Assembly: GCA_018662365.1 (NCBI GenBank)
Contig: JABJGH010000030.1
Location: 2,270-66,269, forward strand
Source: Chloroflexota bacterium
GTDB lineage: Bacteria > Chloroflexota > Anaerolineae > Anaerolineales > UBA11579
DNA: 64,000 nt
Direction: 5' to 3'
This document shows, one piece after another, positions 739 through 45,630 of the stretch. The position numbers and the translations under genes were made by a program. The notes below the pieces were generated by a model. It was given only the letters and a program-made list of their open reading frames with translations, did no database searches and had not been told where the DNA came from. The first letter of the stretch is position 1; every line of letters begins with the position of its first letter.

Positions 739-768
739 GAAATAAGAATTATTTGTCTGTAATTTTAG

Positions 769-801
769 TCCCCTGATGAATCATTATCGGGGGATTTTTT
801 T
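769..801 (+). terminator. Intrinsic terminator
   Basis: TCCCCTGAT...ATCGGGGGA stem followed by a T run after the AI-2E gene. Confidence 0.7.
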
Positions 802-877
802 GTACTTATCGAGTAAATTTTATTTTAAACGAACCTAGGCACCAATTTAAACAAATTTAATAGTAAACTCTTTAATA

Positions 878-1366: not shown

Positions 1367-1385
1367 TATTCTTTAATAGGTCATT

Positions 1386-2279: not shown

Positions 2280-2286
2280 CATATTT

Positions 2287-3162: not shown

Positions 3163-3343
3163 GCTATTTAGATGGAAATGAGAATTGTAATCTTACAAAA
3201 AAACGGCTCGCAAACACGCCAGGAGATTAATCGTATAAATTCTTTTGATCTGAATACAGCTGATATCCCAACTCGCGGCCTTATTTGAGAGGGATTTTTG
3301 ATCAGAATATTTTCAAATGAGGCAAGGTTTATTGGATTTTAAG

Positions 3344-12940: not shown

Positions 12941-15258
<2,318 letters not shown>

Positions 15259-29234: not shown

Positions 29235-29330
29235 ATCTTTCTCCAATGCATAGGTTAAATAAAAAATTCTCTCTCAGCAGTTTAAACACTTTATTTTGTT
29301 GAGGATGCGATAAATATAAAATTAAAATTA

Positions 29331-30869
29331 TTAACCAGTTGGTAAAAATGGCATATCAGGACCATCTATTTCTAAAAGTTCGGATAATCCAGCCCGCATG
29401 GCAATCCGATCATCCCATGGGTATTCAGTTTCGATAAAGCACATGGACTGCTCATGGCCTTTTCCTAAAACCAAGACAATATCATTTGGTTGCGCTTCGG
29501 ATAACGCAAAACGAATGGCTTCCCTTCTGTCAGGTATTCTGAAGAAGGATTCCCCTTCGATTCCCCCCCTACTTTTTGCACCCTCCGCCATCTCCTCTAA
29601 AATTCCTAGTAAAGATTCTGTGCGCGGATCTTCCGCAGTTAAGATGGTTAGGTCCGCATGCTCACTTGAAATTTCTGCCATCATACGCCGTTTTTCTTTG
29701 TCCCGTAACCCGGCAGATCCAAACAGGGCGATCACCCTTCCTGCCGTAAGGTCTTGCCCCGTTTTCAAGGCTGCTTCAAGTGCAAATGGAGTGTGGGCAA
29801 AATCTACCAACGCCAAAAACTCTTGCCCCAAGGAAATGCGTTCCATCCTGCCTGGTACACCATGAAGCGCTTTTATCCCTTCCTGCACCTGTTCTGGTTT
29901 AATGCCCAGTCCAATAATTGTGGCACTGATCGCAGCAAGACAATTTGCAACATTATAATTTCCAATGAGGGAGGTCTCGATGGGTATTTCAAACCCGGGG
30001 CCATGTGCAATAAATTTAAGGGATTCGGGATTGTTGATCACATTTGTGGCATAGATATCTGCTTTTGTGTCCAAGCCATAACTAATTCGAGATACTTTCG
30101 ACCTTTTTGTCAAATCGCTATAAGATCGGTCATCAATGTTCAAAACAACTAGAGGCTCTATAGACTGTTTTGATTTGGATGTGGCAAGGCTCTCGAATAA
30201 CTTTGCTTTTGCATCAAAATATCCTTGATAAGAACCATGATAATCAAGATGCTCGTGGGTGATGTTGGTAACCACACCGATGTCAAAAACATCCCCTAAT
30301 ACTCTTTTTGCGGCCAGTCCATGAGAAGTAGTCTCTAATACAGCGTGGGTTAATCCAGCATCGACCATTTGTCGCAAATATTTTTGCAGGTCAAATACCT
30401 CAGGGCTGGTGACATGCAGGCCGGTGTCCATTTCTTCATCCCCAATGATTGCATTTACCGTGGAAATCATTCCCGCCTTAATGCCTGCTTCTTTCAATAT
30501 CTGATAAATAAAATTTACCGTTGTTGTTTTTCCATCTGTCCCGGTGACCCCGATTAATATTATTTGATTGGCGGGGTGATCATAAAATTCGGCTGAAATC
30601 TGTGCCATGGCATCTCTAGCGTCTCCCACCCGGACATAGGGCACTTCTAAACCTTCCATTTCTTTTGTGCCCATCACCGCAGCTGCTCCATTTTCAATAG
30701 CCATAGGAATATAGCCATGACCGTCAATTCGATCGCTAGTGGCAACAAAAAGATCGCCGGGTACTACCTCTCGGGAATCTACTGCAATACCTGTCACTAT
30801 TCCTTCAGGAATAGGATTGAAGGTCGGATAATTTTGAAATAGTTCGGCAAGTGTTTTTTTGGGCATCAA
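29331..30869 (-). CDS. murE: UDP-MurNAc-tripeptide synthetase
   Basis: GVTGTDGKTTT, E-x-TSHGL, TNITHEHLDYH, VPGRME, VDFAHTP and GKGHE motifs. Confidence 0.93.
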   Translation of the reverse strand: MMPKKTLAELFQNYPTFNPIPEGIVTGIAVDSREVVPGDLFVATSDRIDGHGYIPMAIENGAAAVMGTKEMEGLEVPYVRVGDARDAMAQISAEFYDHPANQIILIGVTGTDGKTTTVNFIYQILKEAGIKAGMISTVNAIIGDEEMDTGLHVTSPEVFDLQKYLRQMVDAGLTHAVLETTSHGLAAKRVLGDVFDIGVVTNITHEHLDYHGSYQGYFDAKAKLFESLATSKSKQSIEPLVVLNIDDRSYSDLTKRSKVSRISYGLDTKADIYATNVINNPESLKFIAHGPGFEIPIETSLIGNYNVANCLAAISATIIGLGIKPEQVQEGIKALHGVPGRMERISLGQEFLALVDFAHTPFALEAALKTGQDLTAGRVIALFGSAGLRDKEKRRMMAEISSEHADLTILTAEDPRTESLLGILEEMAEGAKSRGGIEGESFFRIPDRREAIRFALSEAQPNDIVLVLGKGHEQSMCFIETEYPWDDRIAMRAGLSELLEIDGPDMPFLPTG

Positions 30870-30964
30870 AATGTTTCTTTATTAAAAATATTTTGCTATT
30901 TTCTTGTTTGGGTTCAAGCTAAAAAACATTGAAACGAGGAACTTGCATATTTTATCAGATATAT

Positions 30965-30998
30965 AAAAAAAGACGCCCAAGGATAGCCCGGGGCGTCT
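30965..30998 (-). terminator. Intrinsic terminator after atpF
   Basis: AGACGCCC...GGGCGTCT stem followed on the minus strand by a T7 run. Confidence 0.75.
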
Positions 30999-31020
30999 GT
31001 CTTGTTTTTCTAAAGAGGCC

Positions 31021-31731
31021 TTATTTTACATTTTGGCGCATTGTATCTAATTTGCTAGCGACTGAGCCATCAAGCACTTTATCACCAACTCGAATGACCA
31101 ATCCACCTAAAATGGTGGGGTCAACCTTAAACTCTATCGAGCCTTTAACAGTTCCTTCCACAGATTTCTTTTCGCCATCTGTAAGAGGGAGCGCACTGGT
31201 TACTACAGCATCGCCTTCAGCACCATCTGCGATGACAACTTTACCATCTTTAACACCAGAGAAGAATTCATCGATCAAGGCGTGTTGTCGTTTTTCATCC
31301 AAATTCTCACCAAGGAGTTTTTGGGTGGCGGACATTGCCAACACTGCAATCTGACCACGAACTTCACCTAAGAGGGCATCACGTTCTTCTGCCACACCCG
31401 CTCGAGCTTCATTGGCGGCTTCGCCAGCAAACTTTTCGGCAGCGGCTTTGATGTCACGGGCAACTTCCTCAGCACGCTGTGAAGCTTCTCGAACCACCTG
31501 GGCAGCCTCAGACTGAGCATCTGCTACGATCTTTTCTGCCTCAGTTTCGGCGTTTGCACGGGCTTCAGCAGCCACACGGGCATCTTCCATACCTTGGGCG
31601 ATCTTCTCACGTCGGTCTTCGAGCATCTTGATGATTGGGCCATAGACCCAAGCCTTCAAGATCACGAAAAGGACTAAGAAGTTGAAAAGCTGTACAAAGA
31701 AATAACCTAAATTAATTCCTAATGCTTCCAA
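31021..31731 (-). CDS. atpF: Fo subunit b fused to the C-terminal domain of delta
   Basis: N-terminal TM and coiled coil of b (P-x-x-x-ML-x-x-R-x-x-KI), then delta/OSCP C-terminal signature AVVTSALPL...VDPTILGGLVIRVGDKVLDGSV-x-x-KL. Confidence 0.9.
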   Translation of the reverse strand: MEALGINLGYFFVQLFNFLVLFVILKAWVYGPIIKMLEDRREKIAQGMEDARVAAEARANAETEAEKIVADAQSEAAQVVREASQRAEEVARDIKAAAEKFAGEAANEARAGVAEERDALLGEVRGQIAVLAMSATQKLLGENLDEKRQHALIDEFFSGVKDGKVVIADGAEGDAVVTSALPLTDGEKKSVEGTVKGSIEFKVDPTILGGLVIRVGDKVLDGSVASKLDTMRQNVK

Positions 31732-31749: not shown

Positions 31750-31992
31750 TTAATTTCCAACCACAAACAAGATCAAGAGAGCAACCACCAAACAGTAAAT
31801 AGCGACTGCTTCAGCGAATGCAATTCCCAAGATCATGTTGGTCTGAATTGTTCCAGTTACATCGGGGTTGCGTCCCATGGCCTGTACTGCACCACTGACA
31901 ACGATTCCGATTCCAGCGCCAGCGCCGATCGCGCCGATCATAGCCAATCCTGCGCCAATAAGTTTAGCTGCAATTACGATACTACCTTCCAT
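31750..31992 (-). CDS. atpE: Fo subunit c (80 aa)
   Basis: ATG at 31992 after GGAGG; GAGAGIG, RNP loop and conserved Glu in AEAVAIY. Confidence 0.96.
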   Translation of the reverse strand: MEGSIVIAAKLIGAGLAMIGAIGAGAGIGIVVSGAVQAMGRNPDVTGTIQTNMILGIAFAEAVAIYCLVVALLILFVVGN

Positions 31993-32058
31993 GATTATTA
32001 AGCCTCCAATACTTTTATTTAGACGGGATCTCCGTCTCAAACCTATTTAATAAATTTA

Positions 32059-33075
32059 TTAATGATCGTCGCCATGGGATTCGGTTGCCTGTGACATAAA
32101 CACCATCGTGAGCATACCGAATACGATTGCTTGGATCAGACCCACAAAGAACTCGAGCATTAAGAATGCGCTTTGAGCTACAACAGGTACTAATGTACCG
32201 ATAACAAATAACAATACCGACCCAGCGAAGATATTTCCAAATAGACGGAAGCTAAACGAAAGGATCTTTGCGAATTCACCGATCAATTCGAGTAAACCGA
32301 CTGCAAAGTCGATCACACCGAAGATCGGCACGCTAAAGAGCGTTTTGGTATTGAAAAATTTAGTCAAATATTTTGGACCTAAAGCCTTGAAACCCATCCA
32401 TTGCACCGCAACAACTGCGATAACCGCAAGAGCAAGGGTAAAATTTAGATCCGTTGATGCCACCCTAATAAAAGGCACGATTAAATAACCGTTGGAAGCC
32501 TCATGAGAGTCTTCAGCATGTACATCGTCAGCAACCACTGCCTCATCGGATTCAACAATGGTGTAAAAACCAGACCAAAGTTCTTCCTTTTCAAAACCAT
32601 GAACCTCACCATGAGCAGGTTCGAGCCAACCAATGCTATCCACACCGGGGATCAATTCGGTCCAGTTCCATACAAGTACACTAAGGGTAATTGTTGCAAA
32701 AACCGGGAAAATGAACTTTGTCCATTTCCCTGCAGTTCCCTCGGTGAGATTGTAGAGACCTTCTAACAGACCTTCAACTGCACCAGAAATGCCTTTGGGG
32801 AGAGCATCGGGATTCATAGATGCTCGTTTAATAGCAATTGCAATCAATATAATGATCACATCGGCTAATAACATCGCCAAAATGGTATTGGTGATATAAA
32901 ATGGCTGACCGAAAAATGTTAGTCCTGTTTCAAAGACGTTTTCGGCTGGTAGCTGAATATGCGGTTGAATTGGGGGGTAAGCCTTTGCAGCATAAAACCC
33001 AATAATGATGAAAGCAAGTACCCACCAGCGATGAACCCCCCAACGCCAGCCAGTTTTCTTTTCAGTTTGCTCCAC
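32059..33075 (-). CDS. atpB: Fo subunit a
   Basis: TDLN-x-T and SFSFRLFGNIFAG (essential Arg), E-x-FVG-x-IQA motifs; GTG start after AGGAGG. Confidence 0.96.
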   Translation of the reverse strand: MEQTEKKTGWRWGVHRWWVLAFIIIGFYAAKAYPPIQPHIQLPAENVFETGLTFFGQPFYITNTILAMLLADVIIILIAIAIKRASMNPDALPKGISGAVEGLLEGLYNLTEGTAGKWTKFIFPVFATITLSVLVWNWTELIPGVDSIGWLEPAHGEVHGFEKEELWSGFYTIVESDEAVVADDVHAEDSHEASNGYLIVPFIRVASTDLNFTLALAVIAVVAVQWMGFKALGPKYLTKFFNTKTLFSVPIFGVIDFAVGLLELIGEFAKILSFSFRLFGNIFAGSVLLFVIGTLVPVVAQSAFLMLEFFVGLIQAIVFGMLTMVFMSQATESHGDDH

Positions 33076-33367
33076 TGTCTGCGTCCTCCTGTAATTTTTT
33101 TTCTTCAGCAGTCTCGTTTTCAGAATTTAGACTAAAACGGGATGTCGTAAATCGGACAGCCCATAATAAGCCTGCGATCGTCGCCGGAATACTCAAGATT
33201 ATTAAACCAATTGTAAAAAGGTGCTTTGCGCTATCAAAAACTTTATCTAAATATAGACCCAGAAATACCGCAACAGCAATAATCAAGACTGTTACACAAC
33301 CCGGAATACCAATCCCAGCAAAAACGAGTTTAAAAGTATTCGCTTGATCGTTCTTTTGTTGTGTCAT
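33062..33367 (-). CDS. AtpZ/AtpI-family two-TM ATP synthase accessory protein
   Basis: G-x-x-LD...FTIGL pattern with two TM helices; overlaps the atpB start. Confidence 0.75.
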   Translation of the reverse strand: MTQQKNDQANTFKLVFAGIGIPGCVTVLIIAVAVFLGLYLDKVFDSAKHLFTIGLIILSIPATIAGLLWAVRFTTSRFSLNSENETAEEKKLQEDADSGAN

Positions 33368-33388
33368 ATCAATCTTGATTAAACGTGA

Positions 33389-33418
33389 GCATTATATCAT
33401 AAAGAGATAATGCGTCAA
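33389..33418 (-). promoter_or_regulatory. Internal promoter for the Fo genes with overlapping inverted repeat
   Basis: Minus strand TTGACG-N16-TATAAT with TG extension; GCATTAT...ATAATGC palindrome at 33389-33413. Confidence 0.65.
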
Positions 33419-33486
33419 TAAATGAGACATTTTCTGCAAAATTAGCTTATTCTTTGATGCTAATTTTGCTAAATCTCAATAAAACC

Positions 33487-34917
33487 TTAGAAAAATGAAC
33501 TCGCCACTTTTTGAGCAAGCTCAAACATTGGCGCCATGATCACACCCAAGAAAGTAACGCCTAGGACACAGATAATGATAGCCAAACTTTGTGACTTTGC
33601 TACTGGGAATGGGACTTCGTCCCCTTCTTGGCGACGGAGGTATACAAATTTAATGACCGTCAAATAATAGTAAAGGGCGATCACAGCATTCAACACACCG
33701 ACAACTGCCAACCAGACCATATCGGCTTGAATAGCTGCTGAAAAGACGAGTAACTTACCGAAAAAGCCGCCTAGTGGAGGAATTCCACCAAGGGATAAGA
33801 AAGTAAATAACATCGCAAAAGCTAAGCCTGGGCTACGTCGGCTAAATCCAGCATAATCTTCAATCTCATCTGATCCGGTTTGCTTATAATAAATGGCCAC
33901 AAAACCGAAAGCAGCCAAGTTTGTGAGCAAATATGCGGCAATATAATAAACTACACTGATCACCCCTAATGATGAGGCTGCTGCCACGCCCATGAGGATA
34001 TAGCCTGCATGTCCAATAGAAGAATAGGCGAGCATTCGTTTGATGTTCGTTTGACGTAAAGCAACCAAGTTTCCAACGGTCATGGTGATCGCAGAAAGGA
34101 TCGCCAACAGTGTCTGCCATTCAACGGTTACAGATGGGAAGGCTACCAACATTACTCGAACCAACACTGCGAACCCAGCCGCTTTGGAAGCCGTGGACAA
34201 GAAGCCGGTTACAGGAGTAGGTGCGCCTTCATATACATCTGGTGACCAGAAATGAAAGGGGAACATGGAGATTTTAAAACCAAAACCGACAAGTACCAAA
34301 ATAATACTTGTCATCAATGGCAATGTGGGCACGTTTCCAGCAGCAATTGCATCTGCCAGAGCATAAATATCGGTGGTGCCACCAAAACCAAAGAGAAGGC
34401 TGAAACCGTACATCATTACGGCGGAAGTCATCGCTCCAAATAATAAATATTTAAAACCGGCCTCTGCAGATTTACCGTCTTTGGTTGAGAATCCAGCCAT
34501 GATATACAGTGGAATTGATGCTGTTTCGATCGCCAATAAGAGCATGACGAGATCGCCTGCAGCACCCATCAGGGTCATTCCTAAAGTGGAAAGGACCAAT
34601 AAGCCATAGAATTCACCGCGATCGCCGATCGCTTCCCAGCCACGTGAGAAGACCACCGTAAAAGCTGCGCCAGCAATAAAGACCAATCTAAAGACAAAAG
34701 CCATCCAATCATGGCGGAGCATGCCGCCCCAGATCACTTCTTCTTCCCCTGGTTGAGCTAAGAGGATGGTTAATACAAAAGTAATCACCAATCCAAACAG
34801 TGCAATCCAGTTAAGGGTATCTTTGCCTTCTTCTTTCAATCTAATGTCAACCAATAGTAAGATCGCGGCCAGCACCAATAATGCAATTTCAGGGAGTATC
34901 GCTAAATAATCTACCAT
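33487..34917 (-). CDS. nuoN: NADH-quinone oxidoreductase subunit N
   Basis: EAGFKY, GFKIS-x-x-PFHFW-x-PDVYEGAP, SKAAG, KRMLAYSSI-x-HAG and GFFGK motifs. Confidence 0.95.
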   Translation of the reverse strand: MVDYLAILPEIALLVLAAILLLVDIRLKEEGKDTLNWIALFGLVITFVLTILLAQPGEEEVIWGGMLRHDWMAFVFRLVFIAGAAFTVVFSRGWEAIGDRGEFYGLLVLSTLGMTLMGAAGDLVMLLLAIETASIPLYIMAGFSTKDGKSAEAGFKYLLFGAMTSAVMMYGFSLLFGFGGTTDIYALADAIAAGNVPTLPLMTSIILVLVGFGFKISMFPFHFWSPDVYEGAPTPVTGFLSTASKAAGFAVLVRVMLVAFPSVTVEWQTLLAILSAITMTVGNLVALRQTNIKRMLAYSSIGHAGYILMGVAAASSLGVISVVYYIAAYLLTNLAAFGFVAIYYKQTGSDEIEDYAGFSRRSPGLAFAMLFTFLSLGGIPPLGGFFGKLLVFSAAIQADMVWLAVVGVLNAVIALYYYLTVIKFVYLRRQEGDEVPFPVAKSQSLAIIICVLGVTFLGVIMAPMFELAQKVASSFF

Positions 34918-34920
34918 TTC

Positions 34921-36453
34921 CTAACCTCCCACGCCTAGAACAGCCAAAACTGTTTTGACCCCGGTTTCCATCATTGGAACCATCACCGATGGGAAAATAC
35001 CAATGCCAACCAAGAATAAACAGAGCAGACCAAGAGCAAACTTTTCGCTTGGTTTCACATCTTTTATATGCCCTTCAAGTTCTTTGGGCAGATCTCCGAA
35101 GAAAACTCGCACGATCAATCGAATAATATATGCGGCAGTGATCACGATTGAGATCGCTGCAACGATTGCAATCCAACTTTTATTTCCTAGACCAGCCCAT
35201 GCAGGACCTGCCCAGGCCGCTTTCTCGCCCCAGAGACCCATGAAGATCGGGAACTCGGCGACAAAACCAGAAAAACCAGGCATACCCATCGAGACAAGAC
35301 CACCGATAATAAAGGCTAGAGTGGGGATCGGCATAAATTTAGCGATACCTCCCAGCTTCGATAGGTCTCTAGTATGCGCTTGATCGTAGATCATACCGAC
35401 CACGGCAAAGAAGAGAGCCGTCATAACACCGTGGGATACCATCTGAACACTTGCACCCACCATACCGTCATGGTTGAGTGTAGCAAAACCCATCACTACT
35501 AATCCCATATGGGAAACGGATGAGAATCCGATTACATATTTCATGTCGGTTTGGACCATAGCGATATAAGCACCATAGACCACATTGACAAGAGTGAGGA
35601 AGATCATCCAGGGCATATGGAACTTTGCACCCTCAGGGAGAAGCATAATGCCCACCCGTAAAGCAGCAAAAGCACCCAATTTCATCAACACGCCCGCATG
35701 GAACATAGACACTGCGGTGGGTGCTGCCACGTGACCATCGGGAGACCAGTTATGGAAGGGGAAAATACCGCCCAAAATGGCAAAACCGATAAAGACAAAG
35801 GGGAACCAAAGTTTTTGGAATTCAACGGGGAAGCTCACATCTTGCATAGCGATCATATCGAAACTTGGAACACCAGTGGATTCCCAAGCATAGAAGAACA
35901 TTGCAAGCGCACCAACCAAGGCGACCACCGAACCGATCACCAAATAAAGGGTCAACTTCATCGCTGCGTATTCTCTCGTTTCTTTCCATCCCCAAACAGC
36001 AATCAAAATATACATCGGGAACACTGCAATCTCATAAAAGAAAAACAAAACGAACATATCCAGCGAGACAAATACACCGAAAACGCCGGTGGCTAATAAA
36101 AAGAGAAAGGCAAAAAATTCTCTGGGTCTGTCATCGATGCGTTGAGAAATGATCACACCGGTGAACATCACCAACCCAGTCAATAAGACTAGTGGAGCAG
36201 AAATGCCGTCCACAGCCACATAATAATTGATGCCCAATGCAGGAAGCCATTCAAATTGATCGATCATTTGATATCCAGCAGCATCTATATCGTAGCTAAC
36301 AAAAACCACGACGGAAAGCAGGAATGTGATTAAGCCGATTACCAAGGCTATTTTATAAAAGAGTTTCTTCTTATAGCCTGGAATCAGCATCATCAACAAC
36401 CCAGAAACTGCCGGGAGAAAAACGATGATACTAATAATATAAGGAATTTCCAT
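34921..36453 (-). CDS. nuoM: NADH-quinone oxidoreductase subunit M (second copy, divergent TM7)
   Basis: VDGIS, FYE, PFHNWSPDGH, VLMKLG, SSVSHMG and GFVAEF motifs. Confidence 0.9.
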   Translation of the reverse strand: MEIPYIISIIVFLPAVSGLLMMLIPGYKKKLFYKIALVIGLITFLLSVVVFVSYDIDAAGYQMIDQFEWLPALGINYYVAVDGISAPLVLLTGLVMFTGVIISQRIDDRPREFFAFLFLLATGVFGVFVSLDMFVLFFFYEIAVFPMYILIAVWGWKETREYAAMKLTLYLVIGSVVALVGALAMFFYAWESTGVPSFDMIAMQDVSFPVEFQKLWFPFVFIGFAILGGIFPFHNWSPDGHVAAPTAVSMFHAGVLMKLGAFAALRVGIMLLPEGAKFHMPWMIFLTLVNVVYGAYIAMVQTDMKYVIGFSSVSHMGLVVMGFATLNHDGMVGASVQMVSHGVMTALFFAVVGMIYDQAHTRDLSKLGGIAKFMPIPTLAFIIGGLVSMGMPGFSGFVAEFPIFMGLWGEKAAWAGPAWAGLGNKSWIAIVAAISIVITAAYIIRLIVRVFFGDLPKELEGHIKDVKPSEKFALGLLCLFLVGIGIFPSVMVPMMETGVKTVLAVLGVGG

Positions 36454-36470
36454 TCGTCACCTCTGCTTGG

Positions 36471-38039
36471 CTAACCAAGCATCTCCAAGAGAGCCATACT
36501 GGCCTTATTGATCACGTCTAGCAACCAACCTGGCCAAACCCCCAACCAGAGCATCATCACCATTAAGGGGACGATTACAAATAGCTCTCGCTTGTTGATC
36601 TCGGTCAAATGATCAGAATGTTTTTCATTGACCGGGCCGTGCAAAGTTTTGCCGATCCCTTTAAGGACATAAGCGCCAGTAAAGAGCAATCCGATCATGC
36701 TCAGGGCAGTCCAAAATGTGAAGATCGGCCAGGAGCCTCGTACTACCAGGAACTCGGAAACAAAGCCATTCAGGCCGGGCAAACCGAGAGAAGCCATGGA
36801 GACGAAAATCAAGATTCCGCCATAAATTGGAACGAGTGGGAAATAGCCACCCATTTCATCCAAGTCGCGGGTATGTATACGTTCATAAATAACACCGACA
36901 AGGAAGAACATCCCGGCGGCGGAAAGACCGTGGTTGAACATTTGCAGCACAGCACCATTGAGGGCGATGACTGCGTCTTCTGTTCCTGCCATTTTGGCAG
37001 CGGCAGCAATACCGAGCAGCACAAAACCCATATGATTTACTGAGGAGTAAGCCACAAGTCGTTTGAAGTCTTTTTGACCAAAAGCGGCGAATGCACCAAA
37101 GATGATCGCAGCTGTTGCGAGCCCTGCAATAATATTCGCACTAGCAGCGGCTTCAGCTGGATAGAGCGGAAGCACAAAGCGGAGGAAACCATAGGCACCT
37201 AATTTTAGCAATACACCAGCCAAGATCATTGAGCCAGCTGTAGGAGCTTCGGTATGGGCATCTGGTAACCAAGTGTGGAAAGGCCAGATGGGAACTTTGA
37301 CTGCGAATGCAATTGCAAAAGCCCAGAAGGCAACTTTCTTTGCTGTGGCGACCGTGACCCAACCAAGGATTATTTCTTCCCCACCCATTGCATTCCAACC
37401 TGCGACAATTTCAGGCAAGTTGAAGGTGTGGAAAACCACGCCTAACATCTGGATGGCGAGCAGTAATCCTAAAGAGCCAGCCATGGTATAGATCATAAAT
37501 TTGAAGGAAGCATAGGTGCGATTTGCAACCGTGATGCCACCCCATAATTTTCTTTCACCCTTGGGGCTGCCCCATTGGTTGATCAAGAAATACATAGGAA
37601 CCAAACCAATTTCCCAGAAAACGAAGAAGATCAAGAGGTCTTGGGACATGAAGACACCCAACATGCCAACTTCCAAGAAAAGGAAGAGTGCCATATAAGC
37701 TTTGACTCGATCGGTAATGCTGAAAGAAGCCAAAATAGCGAAGGGGGTCAACAATGTAGTTAGGAGTACCATTGTCATGGAGAGACCATCTACACCGACA
37801 TAGAAGGTGGAGTTGATCGCCTCATACCAAACAAATTCTTGTGCGAACTTCAATCCATCCGCATTTGCAACTGCACCGTCAAATCCAACCCAAAGAATAA
37901 TCGCCATAACCAAAGAAATGAGGCTGACGACTAAGGCCACGATGCGAGTTGTTTTCTTGTTTTTCCCGGGCAGCAGGGCAATAATTAATGCACCCACTAA
38001 TGGGGTAAACAATATTGAGGTAAGCAAGTTTATGTCCAT
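36471..38039 (-). CDS. nuoM: NADH-quinone oxidoreductase subunit M (first copy)
   Basis: VDGLS, FWE, VKVPIWPFHTWLPDAH, LLKLG, AYSSVNHMG and GFVSEF motifs. Confidence 0.93.
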   Translation of the reverse strand: MDINLLTSILFTPLVGALIIALLPGKNKKTTRIVALVVSLISLVMAIILWVGFDGAVANADGLKFAQEFVWYEAINSTFYVGVDGLSMTMVLLTTLLTPFAILASFSITDRVKAYMALFLFLEVGMLGVFMSQDLLIFFVFWEIGLVPMYFLINQWGSPKGERKLWGGITVANRTYASFKFMIYTMAGSLGLLLAIQMLGVVFHTFNLPEIVAGWNAMGGEEIILGWVTVATAKKVAFWAFAIAFAVKVPIWPFHTWLPDAHTEAPTAGSMILAGVLLKLGAYGFLRFVLPLYPAEAAASANIIAGLATAAIIFGAFAAFGQKDFKRLVAYSSVNHMGFVLLGIAAAAKMAGTEDAVIALNGAVLQMFNHGLSAAGMFFLVGVIYERIHTRDLDEMGGYFPLVPIYGGILIFVSMASLGLPGLNGFVSEFLVVRGSWPIFTFWTALSMIGLLFTGAYVLKGIGKTLHGPVNEKHSDHLTEINKRELFVIVPLMVMMLWLGVWPGWLLDVINKASMALLEMLG

Positions 38040-38049
38040 AACCTCGCTC

Positions 38050-40224
38050 CTAGTTTAATGTCATCCAGAAGGCAAAGAGCGCAACAAAGGCTCCGAGCAC
38101 AGCGATGATCATATATTGTTGAATATTGCCGGACTGGATCTTGCGGATCTTTTCGCCAAACCATTGGGTCATTGCGGCAGTGCCATCACCGAAGAACTCA
38201 TTAATCACTGGTAAGTCGAATTTTTCGCGGAAGATCGTTCCCAAGGAGAAAGTTAGCTCTGCAACCTTATGCAGGAAGCCATCAATTACCTTGCGGTCCA
38301 TAAATTCATAAACTACTTTTTCTGAGAAAACGGCTAAAGGTTTTACTAAAACTTTGTCGTATAGCTCATCGAAGTAGTATTTATTCTTTAATAGGGTGTG
38401 GACCGGGCCTAATAGTTTCTTGATCGGATCATTTTCAGCGGTGGTCGCATTGCGATATACCAACCATCCGGTGAGAAGTCCACCTAATGCCACAACCAAC
38501 GATGTGATCAATGGGGTCCAGCTAAAGTGAATTGTCTCAAAGTGAATGAATGAGGGCAATCCATGGGCAATAAAGTCATGGAACCAATTAGGCAATATGC
38601 CGCCGATTCCAGGGAAATGTTCAGGAACACCAACCCACCCGAAACCAATCGCAAAGATTGCTAAGACGATTAATGGAGTAGTCATTGTTGCCGGGGTTTC
38701 ATGTGCGTGCTCAGCTTCTTTTGTGCGAGCTTTGCCGAGGAAGGTCAAGGTGATCTGGCGCATTGTATAGAAAGCAGTAAGGAAAGCAGCAATTGCTAAA
38801 GTCCAAAATACGCCCATATGTCCATTTGCAAAAGCATCAGCTAAAATTTCATCTTTCGACCAGAAGCCTGCGGTTATAAGGGGGAAACCAGAGAGGGCAA
38901 AACCTCCAATCAAGAATGTCCAAAAAGTTTTGGGCATTTTTTTGCTTAGGCCGCCCATGTTGTACATATCTTGGGGATCAACCTTGTGATTGCCTGTATG
39001 TAAAACCCCATGTTCCATGCCATGAATGACTGAGCCAGAACCGAGGAATAAGAGCGCTTTGAAAAATGCGTGAGTTACTAAATGGAACACTGCAGCCACA
39101 TAAGCACCAATGCCTAGAGCGGCGACCATAAAGCCTAATTGGGATATGGTGGAATATGCTAAGACCCGCTTGACATCATTTTGGGCGACCGCGATCGTTG
39201 CGGCAAATAGCGCCGTGATCGAACCGATGACCGCCAAAACTGTCATGGCAGTGGTCAACTCTCCGTGTCCACCAGCTTGAAGCAATGGGAACATACGGAT
39301 GACCATATATACACCGGCAGAAACCATTGTGGCTGCGTGGATCATTGCGGAAACTGGTGTGGGTCCTTCCATTGCATCGGGCAACCAGACGTGGAGCGGG
39401 AACTGAGCTGATTTTCCAACCGTACCAATGAAAAGTAATATTCCAGCCAGACCAGCCACAGATAGACCAGGAATGTAGGAATCAGCATGGGCCAAATGAG
39501 AAATCATTTCTTCGGTGAAGATCGCCTTGAAACTTAGCGTCCCTGCCTCGGTGAAGAGATAAGAGATACCTAGAAGCATGAAGACGTCCCCAACGCGGGT
39601 GGTCATGAAGGCCTTCTTGGCTGCATTCTTCGCGGAATCTTTTCCAAACCAGAAACCGATCAATAAGTAAGAACAGAGCCCCATGATCTCCCAACCGACA
39701 AATAATGTCAGTAAGTTATCGGAGACCACCAAGGTAAACATTCCAAATGCGAATAATCCAATAAACGCAAAGAATCGAGCATACATCGGCTCGATAGAAA
39801 GAACTGTGTGCCCATCTTGGGCAGCGCCATGAGGGGGGAACCCTTTCTTGTCATGGTCACCTTTGGGTTGACCGTAGTTATGATAACCAATACTGTAAAT
39901 GAAGATCATCAATACTGTTATGGCAACAAAGAATAAGACAATGGCAGAAAGAGGATCGATCATTACCCCGATTTCGAAGGGTTTATCGCCCAAGTTCAGC
40001 CAGGTGATCGCATTGCCAAATGGGTGTTCAGCGAAATGATTGGTTGTAAGTGCCTGATAAAAAACATACATGGCACCTAAGAATGAGAGGCCTGCGCCAC
40101 CTACTGCAATGCTGTGACTCAACTTATTGTTCTTGTTCGTAAACAAGACAATAAAGAAGAAGGCCAACAACGGCGGGAGTGGGATCAGCCAGATGATGAG
40201 ATTAGTTAATTCCATAGTTTCCAC
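38050..40224 (-). CDS. nuoL: NADH-quinone oxidoreductase subunit L with elongated lateral helix
   Basis: GWE-x-MGLCSY, GKSAQFPLHVWLPDAMEGPTPVSA, HAFFKALLFL and GFWSKD motifs. Confidence 0.96.
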   Translation of the reverse strand: METMELTNLIIWLIPLPPLLAFFFIVLFTNKNNKLSHSIAVGGAGLSFLGAMYVFYQALTTNHFAEHPFGNAITWLNLGDKPFEIGVMIDPLSAIVLFFVAITVLMIFIYSIGYHNYGQPKGDHDKKGFPPHGAAQDGHTVLSIEPMYARFFAFIGLFAFGMFTLVVSDNLLTLFVGWEIMGLCSYLLIGFWFGKDSAKNAAKKAFMTTRVGDVFMLLGISYLFTEAGTLSFKAIFTEEMISHLAHADSYIPGLSVAGLAGILLFIGTVGKSAQFPLHVWLPDAMEGPTPVSAMIHAATMVSAGVYMVIRMFPLLQAGGHGELTTAMTVLAVIGSITALFAATIAVAQNDVKRVLAYSTISQLGFMVAALGIGAYVAAVFHLVTHAFFKALLFLGSGSVIHGMEHGVLHTGNHKVDPQDMYNMGGLSKKMPKTFWTFLIGGFALSGFPLITAGFWSKDEILADAFANGHMGVFWTLAIAAFLTAFYTMRQITLTFLGKARTKEAEHAHETPATMTTPLIVLAIFAIGFGWVGVPEHFPGIGGILPNWFHDFIAHGLPSFIHFETIHFSWTPLITSLVVALGGLLTGWLVYRNATTAENDPIKKLLGPVHTLLKNKYYFDELYDKVLVKPLAVFSEKVVYEFMDRKVIDGFLHKVAELTFSLGTIFREKFDLPVINEFFGDGTAAMTQWFGEKIRKIQSGNIQQYMIIAVLGAFVALFAFWMTLN

Positions 40225-40243
40225 ACACCTAGGTTCTAAAGAT

Positions 40244-40552
40244 TTACCATTTCATCAGGTTGATTTCATCAGCAGAAACAGTGTCTCGCCGACGATAAAC
40301 CGTCATGATTAAGGCAATACCAACTGCCACCTCGGCAGCGGCTACCACGAATACCATAGCAGCAAATACCTGGCCACTCACATTTTCAGGAGTCAGGTAT
40401 CGCCAAAAAGCTACCAAATTAATATTGACCGCATTAAGCATCAGCTCAATACCCATCAAGATCATGATCGCATTCTTTCGAGCTAAAACTGCGTAAAGCC
40501 CAATAGAAAACAATCCGGCAGCGACGATCAAATAATTACTGAGAGGGATCAT
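40244..40552 (-). CDS. nuoK: NADH-quinone oxidoreductase subunit K
   Basis: IELMLNAVNIN and GQVF...AAAE-x-AVG motifs; ATG at 40552 fits the GAGG spacing. Confidence 0.95.
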   Translation of the reverse strand: MIPLSNYLIVAAGLFSIGLYAVLARKNAIMILMGIELMLNAVNINLVAFWRYLTPENVSGQVFAAMVFVVAAAEVAVGIALIMTVYRRRDTVSADEINLMKW

Positions 40553-40566
40553 ATGCAATACCTCGC

Positions 40567-41082
40567 CTATTCTTTCTGACGGGCGACAAATATCGCACCG
40601 ACCAATGGGATCAATAGCAGCACGGATGCTGTCATTGTTGCAAGTAGATAAACTGGCTGGCCATCCTCTTCAACGAAAAAGGCGGTACCCAAATTGCTGA
40701 TCGCGGCAGCTGTATCTGCTTCTGGAGCAACTGCAGAAAATTCAGGCCAGACGCTTAGAGCGAGGTATAGTCCAATGAATACCAATATAGACATCACTAA
40801 AGCCAAGCTCGCATGTTTGTTAAAAAGTTGACCCGGATTGGTGACTTGCCGGGTAAGCATGACGGCGAATATCACCAAAATGGCGATCGCGCCGATATAC
40901 ACCAGGATTTGAACAACTGCAAGAAAACTGGCCTCGAGCAATACATAATAGACCGCTACACCAAAAAGGGTAACGATCAAGAATAATGCGGCGTGCACCA
41001 AATTTCGGCGAGTAACCATCATTATTGCTGAGATCAATATTACTGCAGATGCAATCCAGAAAATAACTTCTAAGGGGGTCAT
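40567..41082 (-). CDS. nuoJ: NADH-quinone oxidoreductase subunit J
   Basis: N-x-VHAAL and FLA-x-x-QILVY-x-GAI-x-IL-x-x-F-x-VML motifs. Confidence 0.93.
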   Translation of the reverse strand: MTPLEVIFWIASAVILISAIMMVTRRNLVHAALFLIVTLFGVAVYYVLLEASFLAVVQILVYIGAIAILVIFAVMLTRQVTNPGQLFNKHASLALVMSILVFIGLYLALSVWPEFSAVAPEADTAAAISNLGTAFFVEEDGQPVYLLATMTASVLLLIPLVGAIFVARQKE

Positions 41083-41100
41083 TATTGCTCCTTCCGCAGC

Positions 41101-42309
41101 CTAAGCTGCAACCTCTTCAGTCTCTTCTTTTGGAGGAACAGCCACTGCACGTTCAGGGAATCGAACGCGATCTGGTTCGCTCTTTTTTATCGCTCGGCCT
41201 GCAACCACAATGGCACCTATGAGCAGTACCATATTAAGACCAAAATGAGCGTACATTCTTGTGGCCCCAAGATCTTTGACAAAATAATCTAAAAGGGGCA
41301 CAGTCATTAAGAGAATAATATTAAGAGGCACAATGAACTTCCAGTTCATTGCCATCATATGGTCAATACGAATGCGGGGCAAAGTCAAGCGAATCCACAT
41401 GATCACGAAATAAAAGAAGGTGGTTTTGGCAAAGAAAACCACCGCACCTAACCAAGGGCTTGCTGCGGGCTGCCATCCGCCAAAGAATAAAATACTGATC
41501 AGAGCAGCCGAGGCAAATGAGTGTGCAAATTCACCGGCTTGGAAAAGACCAAATTTCATGCCGGAATATTCAACATGATATCCAGCAACGATCTCAGATT
41601 CAGCCTCGAGAAGGTCGAAGGGAGTGCGGCCAATTTCCGCTAAATTACTAATAAAGAAAATCACAAAAGCTAAGGGGGCAAAAACGATGAACCAACCCAC
41701 ATCCCCTTGTTTTCCAATGATCTCATTCAAATTCATGGATCGGGCTAAGAAAACCGGAATTACCAAGGAGAGTAATAACGGCACTTCATAGGAGATAAGT
41801 TGTGCAACACCACGGAAGGCACCCAATAATGCATATTTATTATTAGAGGACCACCCTGCCATCAACACTGCCAACACGCCAAAGGAACCGACGGCACCGA
41901 TATAAAGCACGCCGACATCCAGGTCCGTACCCACCCAGGTACTGGAATATGGGACCACACCCCAGATCATCAAAACAGCGAAGACTGCCATGACCGGTGC
42001 GATGTTATATGAAACTTTATCTGCACTCTCGGGTGTTGTATCTTCCTTGGTGACCATTTTTAATGCATCGGCTATTGGTTGAAGTAAACCAAAGGGGCCC
42101 ACACGATTAGGACCAAAACGGTCTTGCATTCGACCAGCCACTTTTCGTTCTAACCAAGTTTGGAGAATAAAAATTCCCAAAGCCAATCCAGCCACAACTA
42201 CGGCACCGATCAATTTCAAGATCACGGTCGCAAAATCATCTGACAAGTTCCAAGATGTAAGAAGCTCTCGTAACCATTCCGCAAAAATTGCAATAGGATC
42301 ATAATTCAT
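41101..42309 (-). CDS. nuoH: NADH-quinone oxidoreductase subunit H
   Basis: ERK-x-x-x-RMQDR-x-GPNRVGP-x-GLLQPIAD-x-x-K, SNNKY and R-x-PFDL-x-EAESE motifs; ATG at 42309 after AGGAG. Confidence 0.96.
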   Translation of the reverse strand: MNYDPIAIFAEWLRELLTSWNLSDDFATVILKLIGAVVVAGLALGIFILQTWLERKVAGRMQDRFGPNRVGPFGLLQPIADALKMVTKEDTTPESADKVSYNIAPVMAVFAVLMIWGVVPYSSTWVGTDLDVGVLYIGAVGSFGVLAVLMAGWSSNNKYALLGAFRGVAQLISYEVPLLLSLVIPVFLARSMNLNEIIGKQGDVGWFIVFAPLAFVIFFISNLAEIGRTPFDLLEAESEIVAGYHVEYSGMKFGLFQAGEFAHSFASAALISILFFGGWQPAASPWLGAVVFFAKTTFFYFVIMWIRLTLPRIRIDHMMAMNWKFIVPLNIILLMTVPLLDYFVKDLGATRMYAHFGLNMVLLIGAIVVAGRAIKKSEPDRVRFPERAVAVPPKEETEEVAA

Positions 42310-42360
42310 CAAACTACTCCTATCTCACAGCGCTGCAATCAGCAACTGTTTTTGTAATTA

Positions 42361-42397
42361 AACAAATAAAAAGCTGATGAGCATGCTCGCCAGCTTT
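42361..42397 (-). terminator. Terminator-like hairpin between nuoA and nuoH
   Basis: Minus strand AAAGCTGGCGAGC-AT-GCTCATCAGCTTT followed by TTATTTGTT. Confidence 0.5.
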
Positions 42398-42414
42398 CAA
42401 TATATTATTTGAGT

Positions 42415-42771
42415 TTATTTCCACTCCAGCGCACCTTTTCGCCAGGCGTAAACCAGGCCATCTCCTAATAAGAAGATGAAAAGCACTCCGGCAATCACTC
42501 CGAGCAATGGCATCTGATCAAAAGATACTGCCCAGGGATATAAGAAAATGATTTCTACATCAAAAACGAGAAAGACCAAAGCGTAAACGTAGTATTGCAT
42601 TTTAAATTGAACCCAAGTTTCGCCCACTGTTTCCATGCCACATTCATAGGTTTCCATCTTTTGGGCATTCGGTTTTCTGGGTGCTAAAATTCGAGCTACT
42701 ACGATTGGCAGGGTTGGCAGTGCAACCGCGACGATAACCAATAAGCCGATAAACATCCAATTATCCAGCAT
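42415..42771 (-). CDS. nuoA: NADH-quinone oxidoreductase subunit A
   Basis: K-x-x-x-YECG, FLVFDVE-x-x-FLYPWA and Y-x-WRKGALEW motifs. Confidence 0.96.
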   Translation of the reverse strand: MLDNWMFIGLLVIVAVALPTLPIVVARILAPRKPNAQKMETYECGMETVGETWVQFKMQYYVYALVFLVFDVEIIFLYPWAVSFDQMPLLGVIAGVLFIFLLGDGLVYAWRKGALEWK

Positions 42772-43131
42772 TATTTCTCCTCAAAATATCGAAGAATTAC
42801 AACTAAAACCCGACCATTCTACCGACAGTTTTCGATTGAATGTCCAAATTTTTTTGTTCTAATTTCGCAGGGCAGATTGTACCATAAAACACTTATTTTT
42901 CAGTTAATAAGGCATAAATTAATAGGGGGGGGAAATAAGGCAATTCATATAGGGAAAATTTAATTTAATGGGATTTTATAAAATCTTATTTATTGGGTAG
43001 TCCCTAGACCTTAAAATTATTCCATTGTAAACTTAGTTCCCAAAAACTACCCATATATAATGGAAGAAGCCCATTTTTTATGGGTAAAAATTGAAAAAAG
43101 ACAGTACCTTCTCTACCTTAGGCAATAACGA

Positions 43132-45630
43132 ATGATAAAGGAACCTCCAATAAAAAATCAATCAAGGCTTTGGGATTCGTCGGCTGTGATTTTATTTATC
43201 ATGGCTTTATATATCACTTCTAGGCGATTGATAATAACAGAGTGGACAGATCACCTCTATATCATTCGAATTGTGATGTTAATTGCGGGGATCAGTGGGC
43301 TTGCACTTGGTTATAGTCAGTTCAGAACTCGCACGATCCTTTTGTTTGGGTTCGTCTATGGTTCCTTTTTGATTACCTTGCAATTAGGCCTAACTTTAGG
43401 TCGGGGGATTTTGTGGACAGAAAGATTGACAAGTTTATTTGGCCGTTTGGTATCAACAGCCAAGGACTTAAGCGCGAATGCTGTCATTTCGGATCCTTTA
43501 TTATTCCTGATCAGTATGTCGATATTATTCTGGATCATCGGGGTGACCGCTGGCTATAATTTGACTCGAAAGGCAAACCCTTGGGGGCTAATCGTTCCTG
43601 CGGGGATTACCATTGTGATCTTACATACCTATGATTTTTCGATCGAATCTAGAATATGGATCTTGGCAGAATTCCTGTTTATTAGTCTCATCTTGTTAGC
43701 GCGGGTTTATTATTTAGAGAATAGAAGGTTATGGAAATTAGAAAAAACTCAAGTTCCAATTTATGCGGCTTTGAATATGCTTCCGCTTACATTAGGCGTG
43801 ATTATCGTTTTGGTGTTAACAGCATGGGGAGCACCAGCAATTGCAAAGGCTTTCGATCCAGCAGAAAGAGCATGGGAGAAATTAATTGAACCTTGGAATG
43901 AAATTCGCGATGAATTCGAACGCGCATTCAATTCCCTCCGTTCTCCAGCAGTCGGCTTCTCAGATACCTATGGGGATAGTCTGCCTTTGGGGCAGGGAAA
44001 CCCCCAAGGAGAAACCGTTGTATTGACGATTGAGTCTCCTCTTCGACCTTCTCCCGATATGCGGTTTTATTGGCGTGCAAGAACCTATGATTATTATAAT
44101 CCCACTGCCCTAGGTTGGGAAATCACATTAGACGAGAAGCAGTTATTCCTCCCCGAGGGGGAAAACTTTATTTCAGTTGAGAGTTCTGCTCGCTGGGAGG
44201 GTCTTTTTAAAGTCACTGTCTTTAAACCACTTTCCATTTTATATACTGCTCCTGAACCCATTTGGGTGAGTCGGACCTCCAATCTTTTCCCTAGACCACT
44301 TTTTGAAGCAGCCGAAAAAGATATTGCTTTTATCCAATCCGAAAATGCTCTTTTAAATGGAGAGACCTATCAGTTTAAAGCATCGGTTGCCAATGCAACA
44401 ATTCAAGACCTGAGTTTTGCAAGCACAGAATACCCTGAGTGGATCATAGACAAATATTTGCAAATTCCAGAAAATATTACCGAACGCACTCGACTCCTCG
44501 CAGAATCTATCGCTGGGGAATTAGAGACTCCCTATGAAATTGCAGAAGCGATCACCCATTATCTTCGAAATAATATTCAATATACAGATACTGTGCCCCC
44601 CATACCTGAAGATCAAGACCCTATAGATTGGATCTTGTTTGATCTTAAACAAGGGTTTTGTAACTATTTTGCAACCGCAGAAGTGGTCATGCTCCGCTCC
44701 TTAGGAATTCCCGCCAGGCTTGGGGTCGGCTATTCCCAGGGAGAATTTAGTTATGTGATCCAAGAATCTGCGGGTGTCGAAGCCACCCCAGTGATTGATC
44801 CTCTAAATAGGCAACTGGAAGAGGCTCCGCTCACCGGGGAAAGTTATATTGTTCGACAGAGTGACCTTCATGCCTGGCCAGAGGTTTTCTTTCCAGGGAT
44901 CGGTTGGGTAGAATTTGAACCCACTACAAATCAAGACCCTTTAGAAAGACGTGAAGGTGATTTGGCTTTTATTTCCGATTCACTACTTAATTCCGAAAAT
45001 GATGAGCTTAATAAAATCGAAGATCTACCAGAAGACGAACCACTGCTTTTGAAAGATTTTAGTGACGAGGGCTTTTTAAATGGCGAGGCTGATTCCCAAA
45101 ATATTATTAATTCAACGAGCATTAGTATTATCATCGTCGTACTCCTCCTGATCATATTGTTCGTTGTCAACCAAAATAGTTCTGAAACAAAATACCTTAC
45201 CCCAATCCCCGTGCTGATCGAAAAAGGGTTGATTCGTTTGAATATACAACCCCCCAAATTTATTCTCAGATGGTCCCGATCTGCGCAGCTTTCAAGTTTG
45301 GCTCAGTCATATATGGAGATCAACAAAAGTCTTCGGCGATTGGATATTCCAATCGGACTGGAATCAACTCCTAAAGAAAGAGCGGATGTATTGGCAACGT
45401 TACTCCCCAGACTTTCCAAGCCAATAAATGATCTATTACATCAATATCAAACGGGTGAATATAGTATGGCGGAGGGCGATTTGAAATTAGCCAAATCTGC
45501 TAGCCAAGAAATTGGTAAGTTGACCAGAAGGTTTTGGATGCAGAGGATTATCTTCCAAGCACGATACTTCTGGAGAAAAAATAAAATTTGGAAAATTAAT
45601 CAATATGATTCTGGATACTTTAAGAAATAA
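43132..45630 (+). CDS. Membrane-bound transglutaminase-like protein (TgpA/DUF3488 type)
   Basis: Multi-TM N-terminus, YWR-x-x-x-YD, GFC-x-YFA (Cys), GIPARL-x-x-GY, HAWPEV and GWVEFEPT motifs. Confidence 0.88.
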   Translation: MIKEPPIKNQSRLWDSSAVILFIMALYITSRRLIITEWTDHLYIIRIVMLIAGISGLALGYSQFRTRTILLFGFVYGSFLITLQLGLTLGRGILWTERLTSLFGRLVSTAKDLSANAVISDPLLFLISMSILFWIIGVTAGYNLTRKANPWGLIVPAGITIVILHTYDFSIESRIWILAEFLFISLILLARVYYLENRRLWKLEKTQVPIYAALNMLPLTLGVIIVLVLTAWGAPAIAKAFDPAERAWEKLIEPWNEIRDEFERAFNSLRSPAVGFSDTYGDSLPLGQGNPQGETVVLTIESPLRPSPDMRFYWRARTYDYYNPTALGWEITLDEKQLFLPEGENFISVESSARWEGLFKVTVFKPLSILYTAPEPIWVSRTSNLFPRPLFEAAEKDIAFIQSENALLNGETYQFKASVANATIQDLSFASTEYPEWIIDKYLQIPENITERTRLLAESIAGELETPYEIAEAITHYLRNNIQYTDTVPPIPEDQDPIDWILFDLKQGFCNYFATAEVVMLRSLGIPARLGVGYSQGEFSYVIQESAGVEATPVIDPLNRQLEEAPLTGESYIVRQSDLHAWPEVFFPGIGWVEFEPTTNQDPLERREGDLAFISDSLLNSENDELNKIEDLPEDEPLLLKDFSDEGFLNGEADSQNIINSTSISIIIVVLLLIILFVVNQNSSETKYLTPIPVLIEKGLIRLNIQPPKFILRWSRSAQLSSLAQSYMEINKSLRRLDIPIGLESTPKERADVLATLLPRLSKPINDLLHQYQTGEYSMAEGDLKLAKSASQEIGKLTRRFWMQRIIFQARYFWRKNKIWKINQYDSGYFKK

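Follow-up and report, generated by a model that had tools for sequence, protein, structure and literature searches.

We analysed a 64,000-nucleotide (nt) window of DNA from a Chloroflexota bacterium of the order Anaerolineales, which carries a cluster of complex I (nuo) genes made up of membrane subunits only. Eight nuo open reading frames (ORFs), all intact, all on the minus strand and all with strong Pfam matches, follow one another in the order nuoA-H-J-K-L-M-M-N (Table 1). Four PF00361 genes, L, M, M and N, stand in series, which places two nuoM copies between nuoL and nuoN, and neither the ORF list nor the Pfam scans contained a B-, C-, D-, E-, F-, G- or I-like ORF within the cluster. An earlier reading made from the letters alone (the sequence-only reading) had described this membrane-only layout and had put the nuoA-nuoH gap at about 105 nt and the nuoH-nuoJ gap at 18 nt; we measured 102 nt and 18 nt, with no nuoI in the latter. 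The motifs that it had assigned to docking of the peripheral arm were all located, ERK..RMQDR and PFDL.EAESE in NuoH (ERKVAGRMQDR at residues 55-65 and PFDLLEAESE at residues 231-240) and YECG in NuoA. NuoH is extended at both the N- and the C-terminus when compared with its canonical paralogue. No N occurs in the 215,586-bp contig that contains the window, and the same junctions recur in 20 of 20 relatives' loci, so neither junction is an assembly break, an explanation that the sequence-only reading had kept in view.

Table 1. Features of the nuo-Fo region and of the F1 genes, with positions counted from the first letter of the window.
Feature	Position	Strand	Evidence and remarks
nuoA, 118 amino acids (aa)	42415-42771	minus	PF00507, 127.6 bits; YECG at residues 42-45; first gene of the cluster
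Terminator-like hairpin after nuoA	42363-42397	minus	A-tract, GCTG...CAGC stem, T-run; in the 102-nt nuoA-nuoH spacer; sequence read
nuoH, 403 aa	41101-42312	minus	PF00146, 382.6 bits over residues 38-337; NF004741, 343 bits
nuoJ, 171 aa	40567-41082	minus	PF00499, 110.4 bits
nuoK, 104 aa	40244-40558	minus	PF00420, 94.6 bits
nuoL, 724 aa	38050-40224	minus	PF00361, 270.3 bits
nuoM copy 1 (L-proximal), 522 aa	36471-38039	minus	PF00361, 204.2 bits
nuoM copy 2 (N-proximal), 510 aa	34921-36453	minus	PF00361, 194.5 bits
nuoN, 476 aa	33487-34917	minus	PF00361, 256.5 bits; last nuo gene
Terminator-like hairpin at the end of nuoN	33496-33523	minus	T-run reaches the stop codon; consensus scan, sequence read
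Sigma-70-type promoter	33391-33418	minus	TTGACG-16 nt-TG-extended TATAAT; 11/12 hexamer positions; in the 119-nt nuoN-atpZ spacer
atpZ/atpI-like small membrane protein	33062-33367	minus	PF09527, 24.6 bits, under the 26.6 cut-off; first gene of the Fo unit
atpB (Fo subunit a)	32059-33075	minus	PF00119, 121.8 bits over residues 66-328; longest ORF, start may be later
atpE (Fo subunit c)	31750-32040	minus	PF00137, 67.3 bits
atpF (b with C-terminal delta fusion)	31021-31731	minus	PF00430, 80.1 bits; PF00213, 49.9 bits, residues 169-234
Terminator-like hairpin between atpF and murE	30976-30992	minus	Consensus scan
F1 atpA	15281-16936	minus	Pfam
F1 atpG	14362-15258	minus	Pfam
F1 atpD	12941-14353	minus	Pfam
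F1 atpC	12473-12928	minus	Pfam

Searching the genome (66 contigs, 94% complete) for nuoB, C, D and I and for group-4 hydrogenases, as the sequence-only reading had suggested, we located a nuoB-CD-I operon on contig C40 and a canonical set on contig C39, and did not find a group-4 hydrogenase. The C40 operon encodes NuoB (210 aa), a fused NuoCD (581 aa) that matches PF00329 and PF00346 and reaches 474.8 bits with the TIGR01962 NuoD model (cut-off 459.35), and NuoI (216 aa); after nuoI come a 104-aa ORF with four cysteines (Cys4) and a gene for an ApbC/Mrp iron-sulfur carrier. Contig C39 holds a complete canonical operon, nuoA-B-C-D-E-F-G-H-I-J-K-L-M-N, with one nuoM, and this is the only nuo operon of the genome that includes nuoEFG, none of which was found near the window cluster or the C40 genes. 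Genome-wide, the NuoD family (PF00346) is confined to C39 and C40, and the NuoB family has three matches, on C39, on C40 and in the small subunit of a [NiFe] hydrogenase on contig C15. There are two NuoH genes, one in the window and one on C39, and antiporter-like genes number four in the window and three on C39, with one weak orphan on contig C42. Only the C15 hydrogenase scores above the cut-off for PF00374, a third, sub-cut-off match lying in the C39 NuoD, and there is no NuoH or antiporter gene beside the C15 hydrogenase.

Using motif patterns for NiFe binding, the N2 cysteines and 4Fe-4S clusters, we found four cysteines in the C40 NuoB, including a tandem CC, and two CxxCxxCxxxCP 4Fe-4S motifs in NuoI, and the motif search gave no NiFe-binding cysteine motif in NuoCD. 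The C40 head is complete for a quinone reductase and, by its motifs, looks like one and not like a hydrogenase. The order nuoB-nuoCD-nuoI is kept in 29 of 29 relatives' loci. A C-terminal tail rich in K, A and E is found in all 30 split-head NuoI sequences (L008:10671-11321 and L141-L169), which are 198-225 aa long; the canonical NuoI, at 174 aa, is too short to have one. A possible parallel would be lysine-rich FpoI tails that bind ferredoxin; a literature search for it returned no paper, and the lead was set aside.

Three other loci of the genome carry genes resembling parts of complex I. On contig C64 (L172:4512-9728), NuoE-like and NuoF-like genes precede a gene for a formate dehydrogenase alpha subunit with a NuoG-like N-terminus, in which an in-frame TGA within HCARL-U-HSS is probably a selenocysteine codon. 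The end of contig C14 (L171:4556-6800) encodes a fused NuoE-NuoF-like protein of 570 aa, followed by a NuoG-like or hydrogenase-like ORF that is cut by the contig end. The orphan on C42 (L170:3554-5062) is a weakly antiporter-like membrane protein (PF00361, 48.8 bits) flanked by three ORFs without a Pfam match.

The sequence-only reading had pointed to synteny across relatives, and here the split proved to be shared. All 20 relatives' loci show nuoA-H-J-K-L without a B, C, D or I match; 19 continue with M-M-N and the 20th stops at a contig end inside nuoL. Three of these loci come from genomes listed as a single contig, and two further loci beyond the 20 have the same arm order. Across the order the proteins of the arm cluster are 45-79% identical, and the head-docking and quinone-site loops of NuoH and NuoA are invariant among 16 aligned sequences. 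Of 80 named loci, 34 showed this split; the labels they carry are Anaerolineaceae, Anaerolineales, Anaerolineae, Chloroflexota, Thermoflexus or Caldilineaceae.

Variants of the layout were seen as well. One relative (G040 contig C30; L050, L166) has both parts on a single contig, with nuoB-CD-I upstream of nuoA-H by only about 7 kb. A second nuo operon stands head-to-head with the nuoA-H-J-K-L(-M-N) cluster in L088, L089, L091 and L095 (Anaerolineae, Anaerolineales and Caldilineaceae); this partner operon is canonical in L089, L091 and L095, and the head-to-head genes of L088 have canonical A and B and a C40-type CD as their best matches. The clusters of L089 and L091, both on loci long enough to tell, have a single nuoM only, and the NuoL of L091 is still long.

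To relate the C40 head to the window's arm, we used co-occurrence in 60 relatives of the same family or order together with phylogeny. An NuoH of the type found beside a second nuoM (hereafter 2M) and a fused NuoCD were both present in 47 of the relatives, NuoH only in 7, NuoCD only in 1 and neither in 5. Quick maximum-likelihood trees were built for NuoD and for NuoH, each with 51 rows. In both, a branch sets the canonical 14-subunit type apart with support in the Shimodaira-Hasegawa-like approximate likelihood-ratio test (SH-aLRT) of 97 and 98 for NuoD and NuoH, respectively, and the split type is a clade (SH-aLRT 100 and 99) nested among the unsplit 11-subunit clusters of Dehalococcoidia, Bacillota and Ignavibacteriota. 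The C39 NuoD and NuoH sit with the canonical Anaerolineae copies. By these trees, the C40 head and the window arm share one history, apart from that of the canonical operon, and synteny, co-occurrence and phylogeny together point to the C40 head as the partner of the window arm.

Within the arm, NuoL and the two NuoM copies were compared with their counterparts elsewhere. We measured the C-terminal region of NuoL from a YFDELY-type motif to the protein end, and obtained 108 residues for the window protein, which was also aligned to solved NuoL/NdhF chains. Of the 33 L-M-M-N loci measured, 30 gave values of 104-111 residues and three had no motif match; among the 27 single-M loci that gave a value, 19 had 75-87 residues. 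According to extracts of PMC9040806, the lengthening of NuoL amounts to 26 residues in the Nitrospira enzyme. The canonical NuoL on C39 (L007:611-2749) has 106 residues after the motif in an operon with a single nuoM, a curiosity that PMC9040806 also notes in Manganitrophaceae, and it aligns with the window NuoL almost without gaps across the tail. An AlphaFold model of this canonical protein suggested helical segments at 606-630, 633-656 and 662-685; its predicted local distance difference test score (pLDDT) is below 50 at residues 630-712, so that the length of the lateral helix is not readable from it.

Conserved charged columns, defined as those kept in at least 90% of 26 reference NuoM, number 12, and both window copies keep all 12, one of them in copy 1 as E for D. 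As a sequence test this qualifies both as putatively competent pumps. A quick NuoM tree (45 rows, no mixture model) groups the N-proximal copy with the single NuoM of Dehalococcoidia-type unsplit 11-subunit clusters (support 100) and the L-proximal copy with canonical 14-subunit and Ignavibacteria NuoM (support 98). Provisionally, then, the two copies belong to different lineages and would not be a recent tandem duplicate.

A terminator-like hairpin follows nuoA at the position that nuoB-C-D occupy in unsplit operons. Inspection of the RNAfold predictions by eye showed it for the window and for 19 of 20 relatives. An alignment of 17 of the 21 spacers (L050, L057, L058 and L059 were left out) contains nine predicted pairs, four of them with compensatory changes, and one pair is G-C in 10 sequences and A-U in 7. 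No promoter was detected by a consensus scan in the stretch from this hairpin to nuoH, and a search of the whole window against Rfam gave no match. The hairpin may act as an attenuator or as a stabiliser.

The window's DNA is nearly complete in marine and seawater metagenome runs, and short contigs that are 100% identical to its nuo and Fo genes were found in four metatranscriptome runs from at least three studies. No RNA-library contig fell on 29000-31003 or 43028-44000, an absence that carries no evidential weight.

We consider it very likely that the window holds the membrane arm of a 2M complex I of 11 plus 1 subunits, lacking NuoEFG, with its head of NuoB, NuoCD and NuoI encoded on C40. 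Of the two options left by the sequence-only reading, a split operon and a platform docking interchangeable soluble modules, it is the split operon that is correct, borne out by the dedicated nuoB-CD-I on C40, the co-occurrence in 47 of 60 relatives and the shared lineage in the trees. Our observations cover gene content, synteny, co-occurrence and phylogeny, and what we say of the assembly, stoichiometry and electron donor of such an enzyme is inferred: the head would be made and loaded with clusters in the cytoplasm and would then dock on the NuoH and NuoA loops, and quinone reduction at the NuoB/D/H interface would drive four antiporter-like pumps tied together by the lengthened lateral helix of NuoL. 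The usual guess for the donor to enzymes without NuoEFG is a low-potential carrier such as ferredoxin. One proton more per cycle than in ordinary complex I is predicted in the literature.

Several observations weigh against this interpretation. Among the 54 arm-bearing relatives, seven had no detectable dedicated head, and a NuoB search in five of the seven returned the canonical NuoB only. These seven genomes are 67-97% complete, and two of them, at 97% and 90%, have intact arm clusters (G009 and G039); bases 1-3200 of G009 contig C28 hold no nuo gene. A long NuoL tail is not specific to 2M clusters, seven single-M loci elsewhere having tails of 101-109 residues and the canonical NuoL measuring 106-109 in 18 of 19 relatives (L183-L202). 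The RNA-library contigs could possibly be DNA carry-over. The match to the published description rests on papers, seen as extracts, that cite Chadwick et al. 2018, and the pairing of the C40 head with the window arm, in preference to the canonical arm, is drawn from sequence comparison. As to the missing heads, summing by hand 1 minus completeness over the 54 arm-bearing genomes gave about 5.5 expected misses, so the seven are explicable by incompleteness, and we judged them compatible with it, real loss, which may have occurred, not being needed for the counts. Genomes with an arm and no detectable head were accordingly rejected as evidence for a shared head, since they fit incompleteness.

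That the arm is instead a shared platform accepting several heads, the dedicated NuoB-CD-I, the canonical NuoBCDI with or without EFG, and hydrogenase- or formate dehydrogenase-like modules, is very improbable in our assessment, even though one genome does contain two heads and two arms, the canonical NuoL has a C-terminal region of four-pump length, the L-proximal NuoM is of canonical lineage, and the dedicated head went undetected in the seven relatives just described. The NuoE/F-like genes beside the selenocysteine formate dehydrogenase on C64, and those on C14, might be added to this list, but they stand in soluble-enzyme contexts without a nearby NuoB, D or H. Beyond C39 and C40 there is no group-4 hydrogenase or NuoD-like docking subunit, the C40 head and the arm are of one lineage distinct from the canonical operon, and the misses are close to the number expected from incompleteness; with two NuoD loci, two NuoH, no group-4 hydrogenase and no NiFe motifs, the interchangeable hydrogenase- or formate dehydrogenase-like heads of the sequence-only reading found no support. 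That the cluster functions on its own with no redox head, in the manner of an Mrp-like cation/proton antiporter, or is a decaying remnant, would agree with the lack of head genes inside it and is still scarcely credible: NuoH and NuoA, which are not antiporter parts, retain head-docking and quinone-site loops invariant in 16 sequences, all ORFs are intact, with identities of 45-79% across the order, the arm cluster and the dedicated head occur together, and RNA-library contigs map on the cluster. What the sequence-only reading had named as speaking against anything unusual here, an ordinary nuoBCDI set elsewhere and a split that is common and already described in relatives (extracts of PMC7117926), is essentially what we found, with the addition that the genome also has a full canonical operon.

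The remaining rival concerns the genes that follow nuoN, since the cluster runs, as the sequence-only reading had stated, into atpI-B-E-F, with the correction that atpF is a b-delta fusion; the atpZ/I-like ORF scores just under its cut-off. The Fo subunits a, c and b are all present above their cut-offs (PF00119, PF00137 and PF00430), murE follows atpF, and the F1 genes lie 14.1 kb from atpF, in agreement with the distance of about 14 kb given earlier. The order nuoN-atpZ-atpB-atpE-atpF holds in 18 of the 18 relatives whose contig extends there, with murE next in 16, and also in 16 named loci. This conservation would suit a single membrane-sector transcription unit from nuoA to nuoN and on through atpZ-B-E-F, in which the pump and the Fo channel are co-produced, and an RNA-library contig of run X18 (33371-33600) starts inside nuoN, crosses the spacer and ends 4 nt before the atpZ start, so that some read-through from nuo to Fo is possible. 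A contig that spans two genes is, however, no proof of one transcript, and the spacer contains both a terminator-like hairpin and a promoter with matches at 11 of 12 hexamer positions, whose motif 15 of 18 relatives also have in their nuoN-atpZ spacer. Fo genes are missing after nuoN in three named loci with the split cluster (L076, L085 and L091), and the F1 genes are 14 kb off. We therefore regard a single unit as unlikely: with a hairpin and a conserved promoter before them, the Fo genes look like a transcription unit of their own. They are a conserved neighbour and not part of the enzyme.

Splitting of Fo from F1 genes is common among bacteria. The only match to PF00213 (delta/OSCP, the oligomycin sensitivity-conferring protein family) in the genome is the one in atpF, and extracts of PMC8129789 state that some Chloroflexota are without a prototypical delta. 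In four Bacillota records (L096, L104, L105 and L121), an unsplit 11-subunit nuo cluster has atp genes upstream of it; Anaerolineae are thus not alone in linking atp with nuo genes. We found no printed account of the nuo-Fo adjacency in a search that lay outside Chadwick et al. 2018 and its supplements, and we do not claim that such an account is absent.

The two genes beside the head operon were followed separately. The Cys4 protein (104 aa; C40, L008:11405-11719) has four invariant cysteines spaced as CxxC-10 residues-CxxC and precedes the ApbC/Mrp gene (L008:11743-12831); its gene comes after nuoI in 25 of 29 relatives' loci. We rejected it as an extra Nuo subunit: its profile was found in 49 of 60 relatives including three without the 2M enzyme, it was not found in six enzyme-bearing genomes that are 95-100% complete, and in 5 of 10 further loci it stands directly before ApbC/Mrp without nuo genes, the adjacency of the two thus persisting in genomes that lack the 2M enzyme. 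No Pfam or NCBIfam family matched the protein, its Atlas neighbours are unnamed Chloroflexota proteins, and neither Foldseek (best E 2.3) nor VIA-align (best Z 4.8) gave a fold match. A complex prediction for Cys4 with ApbC/Mrp reached an interaction prediction score from aligned errors (ipSAE) of 0.33 (runs 0.40, 0.00 and 0.33), compared with 0.00 for the best of three controls, with inter-run contact agreement of at least 0% and partner pLDDT of at least 74. Of 80 solved complexes, 58 attained the pass mark, as did 2 of 110 mismatched pairs, and scores of 0.60 or less were given by only 7 of those 80 solved complexes as well as by both passing mismatched pairs; the prediction lends weak support to a putative Cys4-ApbC/Mrp complex. 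In relative G054, which is without the 2M enzyme, a fragment of a split-type nuoI (residues 125-184; L173:2751-2927) lies just upstream of the Cys4-protein and ApbC genes and looks like the remnant of a lost head operon.

The long canonical NuoL, the canonical lineage of the L-proximal NuoM and the uncoupling of the head genes, together with the nuoA hairpin, are compatible with the thought that the membrane-only cluster could provide a fourth pump, or even an entire arm, for several heads. An exchange of membrane parts between the two complex I enzymes of Anaerolineales is a very improbable idea on present evidence; were it true, pump number would be adjustable. For cultured Anaerolineae, the Fo promoter, the hairpin at the old nuoBCD site, the long canonical NuoL, the two NuoM lineages and the iron-sulfur carrier beside the head offer experimental handles.

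Group-4 [NiFe] hydrogenases and formate hydrogenlyase have a homologous modular build, with a NuoB/D/I-like head on a NuoH-like and antiporter-like base. The system described here differs from them in that the C40 NuoCD is without NiFe motifs, in that no further NuoD- or NuoH-like genes occur in the genome, and in that the only [NiFe] hydrogenase, on C15, is without an adjacent membrane partner. Comparison with published complex I enzymes was made through extracts of the papers cited. An 11-subunit complex I without the N-module is described for Chloroflexi, Firmicutes and others (Moparthi and Hagerhall 2011, PMC3144371); it shares with ours the subunits A, B, C, D, H, I, J, K, L, M and N and the lack of E, F and G, whereas the enzyme here has one NuoM more and is encoded at two loci. 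Chloroflexus aggregans, of the same phylum, has a 12-gene 2M cluster, nuoABCDHJKLMMN, beside a 14-gene canonical cluster, both transcribed (PMC8004040). Two nuoM and a coexisting canonical cluster are thus shared, but B, C and D lie inside the Chloroflexus cluster and B, CD and I outside the one in the window. The 2M enzyme of Nitrospira (clade 3) has a duplicated NuoM, a lengthened NuoL and no NADH module, and is proposed either to pump one additional proton or to operate backwards, towards ferredoxin; the idea that it works with ferredoxin is set out in the same paper (PMC6606698). Its genes are described as one cluster, whereas our head genes are on another contig.

The description of the Chloroflexi-type 2M enzyme is reportedly owed to Chadwick, Hemp, Fischer and Orphan (2018, ISME J 12:2668). 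In the extracts of PMC7117926, which attributes it to Chadwick et al. 2018, this type has a second nuoM, no nuoEFG, a split-off nuoBCDI and a fused nuoCD; it is summarised there for Anaerolinea thermophila, and the same arrangement is reported on two contigs of a Lost City metagenome-assembled genome. The Fo/murE neighbours, the nuoA hairpin, the long canonical NuoL and the two NuoM lineages do not figure in the description as extracted from PMC7117926; all four may already be contained in Chadwick et al. 2018, and the hairpin, the long canonical NuoL and the two NuoM lineages may be new. The split arrangement is typical of Anaerolineae, already described and ordinary for the group. Second nuoM, absence of nuoEFG, separate nuoBCDI, fused nuoCD and long NuoL are all shared with the Chloroflexi-type 2M enzyme, from which, as far as the extracts of PMC7117926 go, ours shows no essential difference, and the odd-looking absence of every hydrophilic subunit from the cluster is, as published, how the genes of the four-pump complex I without NuoEFG are normally arranged in Anaerolineae.

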